Origin: Myxococcota bacterium
Lineage (GTDB): Bacteria; Myxococcota_A; Polyangia; Nannocystales; Nannocystaceae
NCBI GenBank assembly: GCA_039028615.1
Contig: JBCCHT010000003.1
Span: forward strand, 96,001 to 160,000
Direction: 5' to 3'
Length of the DNA: 64,000 nucleotides
In this document: positions 1-1,731 of the stretch, in pieces
Numbering within the stretch: the first letter of the stretch is position 1
Layout: each line of letters opens with the position of its first letter
The notes under the pieces: model-generated
What the model was told of the DNA's origin: nothing
Database searches by the model: none
What the model saw: the letters and a program-made list of their open reading frames with translations, nothing else
Program-made: the position numbers and the translations under genes

Positions 1-675
1 GGGGAGATCTCGGGGGGCGTCTGCCGGCCCGGTCCAGCCATCTTGGGTGGTGGTGACCAGGGTCGAGCGCGAGGTGTCGTCGTCCCGCCAGGGATCTCGC
101 GCGTAGACGCACTTGCCCGCGTGCAGCAGGTAGCCGTGGACTTCGTGGTGCCGAGCCACCACGACCAGGTAGCGGCGCAGGTGCATGCGGTGCCCGTGGA
201 CGAGCCGCAGTCGCGGGACCGGGCGCTGAAGCAGGGTGAAGCCCTGCTCCGCGGCGCTGTGCAGATCGAAGGGGACGGTCGGCACGCGGATGCCCCGTCG
301 TGCCTGGCGCGTCGGGTGCTTGAGGAACCACGACGAGCCCGCGCTCGCCTGGGCCTCGAAGCGGGCCCGGTCCGAGGGCAGATCGATCAAGAACGTCTCG
401 GGCATGATCGTGGCCGCGCGTGCCCGCCCCAGGTGCGTGCACAGGCGAGCCCACAGGATGCGCTTGGACGCCAGCGCGTCCGCGCCCGGTACCGCTCCGA
501 TGACGACGCCCGGCCGCGGCTTCAGGGCCCGCAGCTCGGACGATTGTCCCTTGCCCGAACGAAGAAGCACGAGGTCCGCAGCATCCGCTGCGGCCTCGTG
601 CAGGTTTGCGTCGGCGAGCGCACGGAGCCAGGTCGACGTCAGCTCGCTCGACGCGTAGTAGGTCGCGGTCGTGGC
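1..675 (-). CDS. Tubulin-tyrosine ligase/polyglutamylase (TTL/TTLL)-like ATP-grasp protein, partial (runs off window edge; not in ORF track)
   Basis: Hand translation gives 225 stop-free codons in frame with the upstream TAG (676-678): ...VIGAVPGADALASKRILWARL...IMPETFLI...WFLKHPTRQARRGI...LLQRPVPRLRLVHGHRMHLRRYLVVV...GYLLHAGKCVYARDPW. Motif order matches the TTL family (GAD.L..K..L; PETF; W..K; RGI; Q+Y..P.L..G.K..LR.Y; G...A). Start unclear: ACG at 672 lies 6 nt after GAGGAG; GTG near 570; or readthrough. Confidence 0.75.
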
Positions 676-1731
676 CTACTCCTCGATGTCCTCCTCGCCC
701 TCGACATCCGCACTCTCGGCCCCGACCTCCTCATAGTCGAAGTCCTCGGGCGGCGGAGGTGCCGTGTCGGGCACGAAGTCGGGCGGAGGGGGAGCGGGCG
801 GCGGAGGTGCCGAGTCGGGCACGAAGTCGGGCGGCGGATCGGTCGGCAGATCCGGTACGTCGGGAATGTCCGGCAGCAGCAGCTCCCAGTACATCCACTG
901 GGTGGGGAACTGCACTTCCACGTGCATGGGCTGGCAGGGCTGCAGCTCGATGTCCCCGTCCTCCGGGTAGCGGTGCTCGGTCTGCGTGGCGGCATCCCAG
1001 GCGCGAATGCGGGTGGCTCCGGCCAAGGCATGGAGTTCGCTGGCCATGATGGTGCCCGTCTGCAGGGGCAGGGTGACGAGGTTGTCGCCCGGCTCGAGCA
1101 TGATCGCCATCGACTCCACCGAGGCGACCGAGCCCACCATCGAGTAGGACGACGGGTTTACCGGTACGCCCGACTGGTGCTGGACCGCCACCACTTGGCC
1201 CGGCGAAAAGGGCAGGTTCGACCACGTCTGCCACGGCCGATGTCCACTGAAGCTCTGCGAGAAGGGATTCCACGTCCACGCGGACAGGACGTTGGAGTCC
1301 ATGTCGGCGAACAGCTCGGCCGTGTTCGCGATCTGGGCGTCGAGACACAGACCAACCTTCGTGAACCCCGGGAACAGCGGGGTCGGGACCACGGCCGCGG
1401 TGGCCGAGCCGAGGTTGGGGTATGTGACGGGCGCGACCGTGTAGAACCGAGTCGTGCCGTTGTTGGCACCCTGATCGATGAAGATTCCATCATCTGTCTC
1501 CGCGATGAGGGTCGAGTCGTCGCCGCCGGGCACCGCGTTGGGGCTGTCGCTCACCCACACGGCGTCCAGATCTCCGGGAGTCGGAGTCCAGGTGAGGACG
1601 ATGTTCGTGCCGTCCTTGCTGATGTCGACGGTCTCTCCCGGGTCGATCGCGTGCGCGTTCGTTCCGTACGAGTACGCGCACAAAGCGCAAGCCGCGGCGA
1701 TCCCCAAAGGCGCCCAACGATTCGATTCCAT
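676..1731 (-). CDS. Secreted beta-rich protein with Pro/Asp repeat linker and alpha-tubulin-like acidic C-terminal tail
   Basis: ATG at 1731 with GGGGAGA SD; signal peptide ending AHA; PPPDFVPD(S/T)APPPP twice; ends DYEEVGAESADVEGEEDIEE*. N-terminal ~290 aa align by eye with the 37560..39035 protein. Confidence 0.85.
   Translation of the reverse strand: MESNRWAPLGIAAACALCAYSYGTNAHAIDPGETVDISKDGTNIVLTWTPTPGDLDAVWVSDSPNAVPGGDDSTLIAETDDGIFIDQGANNGTTRFYTVAPVTYPNLGSATAAVVPTPLFPGFTKVGLCLDAQIANTAELFADMDSNVLSAWTWNPFSQSFSGHRPWQTWSNLPFSPGQVVAVQHQSGVPVNPSSYSMVGSVASVESMAIMLEPGDNLVTLPLQTGTIMASELHALAGATRIRAWDAATQTEHRYPEDGDIELQPCQPMHVEVQFPTQWMYWELLLPDIPDVPDLPTDPPPDFVPDSAPPPPAPPPPDFVPDTAPPPPEDFDYEEVGAESADVEGEEDIEE
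747..834. repeat. Intragenic direct repeat, 2 x 40 bp (1 mismatch), 48-bp period, encoding the Pro-rich linker
   Basis: cgggcggcggaggtgccg(t/a)gtcgggcacgaagtcgggcgg at 747-786 and 795-834. Confidence 0.9.

Follow-up and report, generated by a model that had tools for sequence, protein, structure and literature searches.

Bacterial proteins ending in an alpha-tubulin tail, found in many unrelated lineages, point to an undescribed form of tubulin mimicry

The tail of alpha-tubulin and the TTL-family enzymes that write on it are, to our knowledge, regarded as eukaryotic features. Among the systems described so far, the TTL proteins of giant viruses (PMC11915834) and the TTL-domain proteins of Legionella (PMC4256840) have both been proposed, as far as the available text of these reports goes, to have a putative role on host tubulin, and ATP-grasp ligases that add Glu to the ends of bacterial proteins are established according to the accessible part of the source (PMC4431377). 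Bacterial proteins with a tubulin tail were not found described in the accessible share of the open-access literature, where the tail peptide itself appears in one plant paper. Here, we analyze a 64,000-nucleotide stretch of a Myxococcota genome (the window; positions 96,001 to 160,000 of contig JBCCHT010000003.1, or G000:C3:96001-160000 in our numbering, in a source genome of 12.3 Mb and 68% GC), in which the gene of a predicted exported protein ending in an alpha-tubulin tail (the carrier) lies directly upstream of the gene of a TTL-like ligase. By its gene content the source is probably a myxobacterium of the Nannocystales type, and its best read set, with no RNA set listed, is a marine metagenome from which it may come. 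The arrangement of tail and ligase is real, and its function we infer. The occurrence of such carriers in many unrelated bacteria points to a form of tubulin mimicry that has not been described.

The tail and its carriers

The carrier open reading frame (ORF) starts with an ATG at position 1731 and closes with the C-terminal PEDFDYEEVGAESADVEGEEDIEE and a TAG stop; the gene and its ending are those of the first-pass annotation, made from the letters alone. The alpha-tubulin of the flagellate Bodo saltans (P0272, so named by NCBI) ends in DYEEVGAESADVEGEEDVEEY, from which the window tail differs by a single Val-to-Ile change and the missing terminal Tyr. When this Bodo 20-mer was compared with the source genome, 19/20 residues agreed at the carrier and no more than 11/20 at any of the remaining 21.6 million six-frame positions, which disposes of the earlier caveat that acidic tails can converge by chance. 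The alignment to alpha-tubulin suggested at that stage was borne out as well, as all 22 PDB matches of the carrier's final 24 aa (22/22 at E<=10) are alpha-tubulin, the best (E 2.3e-4) aligning to residues 430-450 of 451. The top entries, 9e2g and 9e78, are presumably trypanosomatid. The D-Y-E-E-V-G start and the acidic run stand in register with alpha-tubulin residues 431-450, and the terminal Tyr or Phe of such tails is missing, the window tail ending in EE. Neither the GTPase nor the intermediate domain of the tubulin fold was found in the carrier, which has no Pfam match and whose tubulin match is confined to the last 20 residues. The end of the carrier is a genuine alpha-tubulin tail and not an acidic look-alike.

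The GC content at third codon positions (GC3) is 0.82 in the window tail versus 0.85 in the gene body. A Logan contig that may come from the same sample is identical over 3001/3001 bases across the locus, so the TAG is not peculiar to the source assembly; run X2 contains fragments of a relative, the junction not among them. A promoter and terminator scan gave no signal above shuffles. Among homologs of the carrier, P0007 (89% identity) keeps the tail and ends in ...EEELEEF, P0005 (52% identity) keeps it from EVGAESAD onward, and P0006 (~40% identity) has the body with another C-terminal domain in place of the tail. Tail-less paralogs of the body also occur twice in the source genome (at C63 and C30). 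Because the same body exists without a tail in P0006 and in these two paralogs, the tail is a module joined to it. As for the body, its top Atlas match is fn3 (score 0.91), and the structure model has a mean predicted local distance difference test score (pLDDT) of 50.9, a low confidence at which the fold is not fixed and the FN3 matches are weak.

We scanned GTDB for the tail motif and sorted the 91 matching loci ourselves. At ten loci in nine genomes, a protein that is not tubulin and has a signal peptide ends in the tail; of the others, 1 is an internal graft, 15 are eukaryotic tubulin from contaminant contigs, and 65 match in the motif alone, mostly within one actinobacterial family. The hosts include, by record, the isolate Algimonas arctica, two Bacteroidota (one a single-amplified genome), Rhodobacterales and a Deltaproteobacteria metagenome-assembled genome (MAG), together with two 70%-GC records whose labels, Rickettsiales and Enterobacteriaceae, are doubtful. 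The cultured A. arctica has its tail gene, encoding a carrier of 130 aa, and the ligase amid ordinary bacterial genes. Across hosts, the GC3 of the tail runs from 0.14 to 0.93 and tracks host GC, with the protein barely altered. Such host-adapted codons on a nearly constant peptide argue for selection on the peptide and against chimerism. We regard it as next to certain that the tail is of tubulin origin and under selection.

Genome G337 was located through its ligase. Upstream of that ligase is encoded a secreted protein of unrelated type, with MopE-type repeats; its final 49 residues align with tubulin 403-451 (E 6e-20). Furthermore, a profile built from seven carriers gave 5912 matches among 8000 candidates, mostly pieces of tubulin; by a rule of our own we chose 44 carrier clusters among the 120 matches listed, a set that includes most query proteins and misses at least one (P0199). 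When the three window-type proteins are added to these 44 clusters, 31/47 carriers share at least 17/21 residues with the Bodo tail, and the other 16 are not Bodo-like, several of them following other eukaryote tail types as judged by eye. The C-terminal end is Tyr or Phe in 25 of the 44 clusters listed and EE in 18, and the point at which the tubulin piece starts is highly variable. The K40 loop is also present in 3/44 of the clusters listed (tubulin 30-54 in P0219) and in the G337 carrier. These features suggest several eukaryotic donors, from which exactly the modification sites would have been taken. Most carriers (e.g., L049, L078, L042 and L068) have a His-rich domain of ~35 aa after the signal peptide, with no Pfam or Atlas match; the window carrier is without it.

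Some side observations belong here. Carriers with K40-loop or extra tubulin pieces are that of L064 (1474-2931, plus strand), P0219, P0237, P0242 and P0235, the last with a piece that we take to be a beta-tubulin tail, joined to alpha helix 12. The His-rich domain has another match in G337, in a protein encoded away from the tail locus (G337:C200, L178). At L089:3436-4425 (minus strand) the tubulin-like LLEKDYEEVGTES is internal to an NHL-type lipoprotein, not terminal. The carrier had no match in plasmid or phage collections. A phage gene from IMG/VR (L157, read as sulfotransferase-like, frame from 3848 on the minus strand) ends in KDYEEVGAES before its stop; these 10 residues, identical to kinetoplastid tubulin, may be a chance ending or a worn tail. 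The contaminant contigs with eukaryotic alpha-tubulin come from 15 GTDB representative genomes, some of them isolates (L023, L027, L044, L053, L058, L060, L075, L080, L084, L086, L091, L096, L101, L102 and L106).

The neighboring ligase and its linkage to the tail gene

After the carrier TAG, the ligase frame stays open for 343 codons and, when extended leftward beyond the window, contains LLELNKRP, the C-terminal catalytic E-x-N motif. The TTL-family motifs quoted in the first-pass annotation are present in this frame, which had been thought absent from the list of ORFs; this was so only in part, as a GTG-started, open-ended ORF of 190 aa (1..570) was listed. Membership of the TTL family stands. 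The Pfam TTL family (PF03133) matches the ligase at E 1e-17 and 64.7 bits against a cut-off of 20.1, and the linked ligases elsewhere score 78.2 (L078), 47.2 (L042) and 52.7 (G337). The structure model (pLDDT 93.5) has the three-domain TTL ATP-grasp fold, with TTLL6 as its top structural match (template modelling score, TM, 0.76). The ligase profile aligns over its full length with TTLL6 (E 2e-29 versus 6e-21 for TTL), and the single-sequence PDB matches are mostly TTL.

Residue roles in the active site were taken from TTLL6, within the available text of its description (bioRxiv 2020.06.07.139295). The ATP/Mg residues and R219 are kept, TTLL6 K125, K174, R219, D346, E359 and N361 corresponding here to K71, K119, R167, D278, E291 and N293, and these are near-invariant in a clade of 43 sequences. 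The K377 site holds Lys (K309), with K/R in 42/43, where TTLs have Tyr. With K377 retained and TTLL6 as the nearest match of the profile, Glu is the first-choice donor, and we lean modestly toward Glu as the added residue if the ligase modifies the tail. By its residues, the protein belongs to the TTL family and to none of its three usual classes: TTL proper combines a Tyr at the K377 site with a Glu at the second donor position, where Lys and Pro stand here; the glutamylases have K283 and K377, of which only K377 is kept; and in the glycylases the two donor sites are occupied by residues that are hydrophobic or polar, where Lys/Arg is found here at the K377 site. Such constant conservation would argue for an active enzyme with a donor pocket of its own.

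A word-based homolog search yielded only one relative of the ligase, and a full HMMER scan supplied the others; the best 150 split into the 43-row clade and a larger group. All tail-linked ligases fall in one clade (support 0.974). A search with a sub-alignment of the larger group found 34 IMG/VR loci, many labelled giant-virus MAGs, and by sequence the closest relatives of the clade are giant-virus TTLs, which have the same changes at R241, K283 and the N264 motif. In their alignment, the bacterial ligases show neither a signal peptide nor a membrane anchor. Two clade members, P0084 and P0071, are fused behind two AhpC/TSA (redoxin) domains. The source genome has a second TTL-domain gene (G000:C16:117733-118782, L002), convergent with a phosphonate-type cluster (phosphoenolpyruvate mutase, decarboxylase-aminotransferase); together with its orthologs it lies on another branch of the tree, has no tail gene and has the same neighbor in G049 and G002, and it may be a small-molecule ligase. 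A Pfam TTL match in G475 lies in a cell-wall and division gene cluster and was read as a D-Ala-D-Ala ligase, and the weakly matching proteins of G471 and G474 are ATP-grasp proteins of other kinds.

In the window, as in L042, L064 and L078 (3/9 tail genomes), the gene directly downstream of the tail gene is the ligase, and a fourth tail genome has a clade ligase on another contig. Additionally, 5/17 ligase clusters share with a carrier both the source and the exact size of the longest contig (32361, 192601, 71628, 16348 and 9470), a matching of records and not of DNA. The size match of P0167 and P0200 (1355) was dropped, as P0167 is not a ligase sequence, and the near-match 4746/4745 was left out of the count. 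Strong matches to the ligase clade are rare (2/401 genomes in the phylum sample, a further count of 1/401, and 5/182 in the class of G337), and tails are rarer still. Tail gene and ligase co-occur far more often than their rarity allows. Homologs retain the tail, and the pairing recurs with unrelated carriers in other phyla, but each gene also occurs alone; the pairing is recurrent and optional. A narrow DNA scan for the ligase found nothing in GTDB and three loci in metagenomes, namely L018 (no tail gene), L019 (no upstream DNA) and L020 (weak and partial).

Table 1. Features of the carrier and ligase genes, in window coordinates
Feature	Position	Strand	Basis or remark
TTL/TTLL-family ATP-grasp ligase P0001, first 225/343 codons in the window	1..675	-	Continues to G000:C3:95644
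Junction GAGGAG-TAG-GCC-ACG	670..684	-	Shine-Dalgarno-like hexamer formed by the carrier's last two Glu codons
Carrier gene P0002, 351 aa	676..1731	-	Signal peptide, beta-rich body, Pro-rich spacer and alpha-tubulin tail; homologs; no Pfam match
Alpha-tubulin C-terminal tail, 20 aa, without terminal Tyr	679..738	-	19/20 identity to Bodo saltans alpha-tubulin
Pro/Asp-rich spacer, repeated PPPDFVPD units	739..873	-	Sequence; length varies among homologs
Extracellular body, residues ~30-280: FN3-like beta-sandwich, then a second beta-rich region	892..1644	-	Candidate fold
Sec-type signal peptide, residues ~1-28, AHA at its end	1648..1731	-	By-eye reading of the sequence

A possible decoy and the competing explanations

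The explanation we prefer, tentatively and at somewhat below an even chance, is an exported decoy in the tubulin code, directed at grazing flagellates and accompanied by an optional writer. The protein with the export signal carries an alpha-tubulin piece of the bodonid (kinetoplastid) type, and this piece would be kept close to the protist sequence because it is read by the tail-recognizing machinery of the protist. Candidate readers are motors, severing enzymes, microtubule-associated proteins or tail-modifying enzymes, and the carrier could act on them as a decoy or lure for flagellates grazing on bacteria. That the reader is eukaryotic we consider probable, because of the fidelity of the tail to that of a bacterivorous flagellate, its persistence where no ligase was found and the additional K40 pieces. 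The ligase would be an optional writer that works in the bacterial cytoplasm, with ATP, before Sec export, and adds to the Glu-rich tail a tubulin-code mark, most likely glutamate; given the head-to-tail gene order, we find it rather more plausible than the contrary that the ligase modifies the tail. The earlier proposal of the tail as the cognate substrate of the ligase thus gains from the recurrent adjacency but not as an obligatory pairing, as tails and ligases each occur alone, and its other suggestion, a mimicry aimed at eukaryotes, fits the data better, with a function that stays predicted. More tentative still is the wider proposition that free-living bacteria of several phyla have repeatedly captured the tubulin modification sites of their grazers, namely the alpha tail and at times helix 12, the K40 loop or a piece of beta tail, and show them on exported proteins, that some write marks on them with a giant-virus-related TTL-like enzyme, and that the decoy engages bodonid readers.

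Several points weigh against this explanation. The TTLL6 R241 site (TTL R222) is V190 in the window ligase and Ile, Val or Leu in 36/43 of the clade, the K283 site is Pro in 43/43, and the N264 motif (H-L-T-N) is reduced, and each of R241, K283 and N264 is required for TTLL6 activity according to the accessible part of its description (bioRxiv 2020.06.07.139295). These changes leave the donor residue and catalysis putative; R126, present in 39/43, might replace the lost R241. The linkage also has its gaps. Among seven loci in five genomes that were approached from the ligase, a tail gene stands at only one (G337), and a carrier search of the other four genomes found none; 5/6 of the genome ligase loci without a tail sit in one side branch. 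L018, sister to the window ligase, is without a tail gene, 5/9 tail genomes (mostly MAGs) yielded no ligase of the clade, and none of the 34 giant-virus ligase loci has a tubulin tail. No ATG, GTG or TTG occurs in ligase codons 1-35. Furthermore, the activity, binding, export and expression of the module are predictions from sequence, and the weak steps of the scheme are delivery into the protist cytosol, the passage of a branched tail through SecY and the donor residue.

One alternative is a different target for the ligase. In a two-part effector, its substrate would be the protist's own tubulin, and the tail protein would be a second anti-protist factor or a competing decoy; this arrangement would suit a ligase whose closest kin, the giant-virus TTLs, have the active site altered in the same way and stand at loci without tail genes, as well as the separate occurrence of each gene and the roles on host tubulin proposed for the giant-virus and Legionella proteins. 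We nevertheless judge it unlikely, as the bacterial ligases are without the signal peptide or anchor of the viral-type ones compared, no delivery system was found at the loci read, and genes coupled head to tail, with a substrate that looks perfect, are more simply read as those of an enzyme and its substrate. A purely bacterial use, in which the tail was captured once with its ligase and serves as a tunable polyanionic end, as with RimK on S6, without any eukaryotic reader, would explain the recurrent linkage and has a precedent in the Glu addition reported, in the available text, for bacterial protein ends (PMC4431377). Tail and ligase would then be expected to drift together, which is not seen: the linked ligases are ~30-44% identical to their nearest non-self matches listed (2/3 cases), whereas the tails are near-identical to those of protists. 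Tails also persist in genomes without a detected ligase, and several eukaryote tail types and the K40 loop were acquired, so that we give this use little weight. The first-pass annotation had read the EE end as a detyrosinated acceptor for the re-addition of Tyr. A true tyrosine ligase would agree with this end, seen in the window and in 18/44 carrier clusters listed, and with the predominance of TTL among single-sequence PDB matches. The idea did not hold up well: in 8/9 of the tails linked to a ligase, a Tyr or Phe is already encoded at the end (P0007, L064, L078, L042, P0218, P0216, P0190 and P0242), the window tail being the sole exception, the K377 site has Lys where TTL has Tyr, the profile favors TTLL6, and a MATCAP-type detyrosinase was found in one of the five genomes searched and in neither the source genome nor 3/4 of the others. 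We consider it quite improbable. TTLL11 extends EE ends and not Tyr/Phe ends, as far as the accessible text goes (PMC12366701), and by analogy the EE end of the window tail could matter.

It is also conceivable that the family module is real and that the ligase of the source genome is decaying or barely translated after the loss of its start codon, the tail protein working alone. The lack of a usual start before codon 36 and the frequency of tail-only genomes would fit such decay, and a start at GTG 570 would cut off the first strands and the helix of the N-domain. However, the frame is intact, and codons 1-35 have the GC3 of 0.86 found in the rest, a pLDDT of 90-97 and an alignment with the N-terminus of the family. 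The ACG at 670-672 lies 6 nt after GAGGAG and is aligned with the GTG start of L018, and the gene calls of a 74%-identical sister ligase (P0004, P0010) likewise begin late, suggesting a shared old trait. A weak, coupled ACG start is probably the simplest reading, and decay, its rival, seems to us a minor possibility. Read-through of the TAG into a carrier-ligase fusion was set aside, as the linked loci read show separate starts and gaps. Finally, the tail might be an artefact, either a chance acidic end or a chimera with eukaryotic DNA, for which the 15/91 eukaryotic contaminants among the GTDB motif matches and the first ~1.2 kb of contig C32 in the source assembly, low in GC and eukaryote-like, might speak. 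This last segment (G000:C32:1-1200, L181) has 40-49% GC and short frames matching alpha-tubulin acetyltransferase (PF05301, E 6e-9), gives way beyond ~1.2 kb to bacterial sequence of 62-69% GC, and is probably an intron-containing eukaryotic piece misjoined at the contig end. Against an artefact stand the 19/20 match over a background maximum of 11, the host-adapted codons of the tail, the same body-tail join in other samples and the cultured A. arctica. For the family as a whole the A. arctica locus and the host-following codons refute it, and for the window we leave it hardly any probability.

Comparison with known systems

Across bacteria whose GC content differs widely, a eukaryote-derived tail has been kept nearly letter for letter, and a TTL-like enzyme is repeatedly encoded next to it. 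The transfer of a 20-50 residue peptide from eukaryote to bacterium, followed by strong selection, is already surprising. If the decoy explanation is true, a bacterial system would counterfeit a eukaryotic code's substrate as well as its writer, with a possible new grazing defence and a bait for protist tail readers. The small enzyme-substrate pair would be open to direct study for an uncharacterised TTL clade shared with giant viruses, and it may perhaps offer a compact enzyme from bacteria with which defined tubulin modifications could be made.

The fold (TM 0.76) and the ATP/Mg and phosphate-transfer residues of the ligase are those of the eukaryotic TTL/TTLL enzymes, as the available text describes them (TTLL6, PDB 6VZT, bioRxiv 2020.06.07.139295; TTLL11, PMC12366701). 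As in TTLL6-type glutamylases, the bacterial ligase has the K377-type Lys, and the carrier has the tail sequence of alpha-tubulin. Unlike the eukaryotic systems, the candidate substrate is a tail of 20-50 aa borne by a protein that is not tubulin and has an export signal, the ligase consists of a bare core of ~340 aa with R241, K283 and the N264 motif changed, and no eraser is linked to the module. The TTLs of giant viruses (Nucleocytoviricota; PMC11915834, accessible part) are the nearest relatives of the ligase and have the same changes at R241 and K283, with K377 kept; the viral-type TTLs compared differ from the bacterial ligases by their N-terminal hydrophobic anchors and by the lack of a tail at all 34 loci. 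TTL-domain proteins of Legionella, e.g., Llo2200, are likewise bacterial, and host tubulin is their proposed target; they are candidate effectors of intracellular bacteria, with no tail-bearing partner described in the available text (PMC4256840). Lastly, RimK with S6 (PMC4431377) and rloABC of Pseudomonas (PMC12239564) pair an ATP-grasp ligase with a Glu-rich protein end, as here, but they belong, by the accessible text of both reports, to another ATP-grasp family and act on native bacterial tails with a cytoplasmic or membrane partner.

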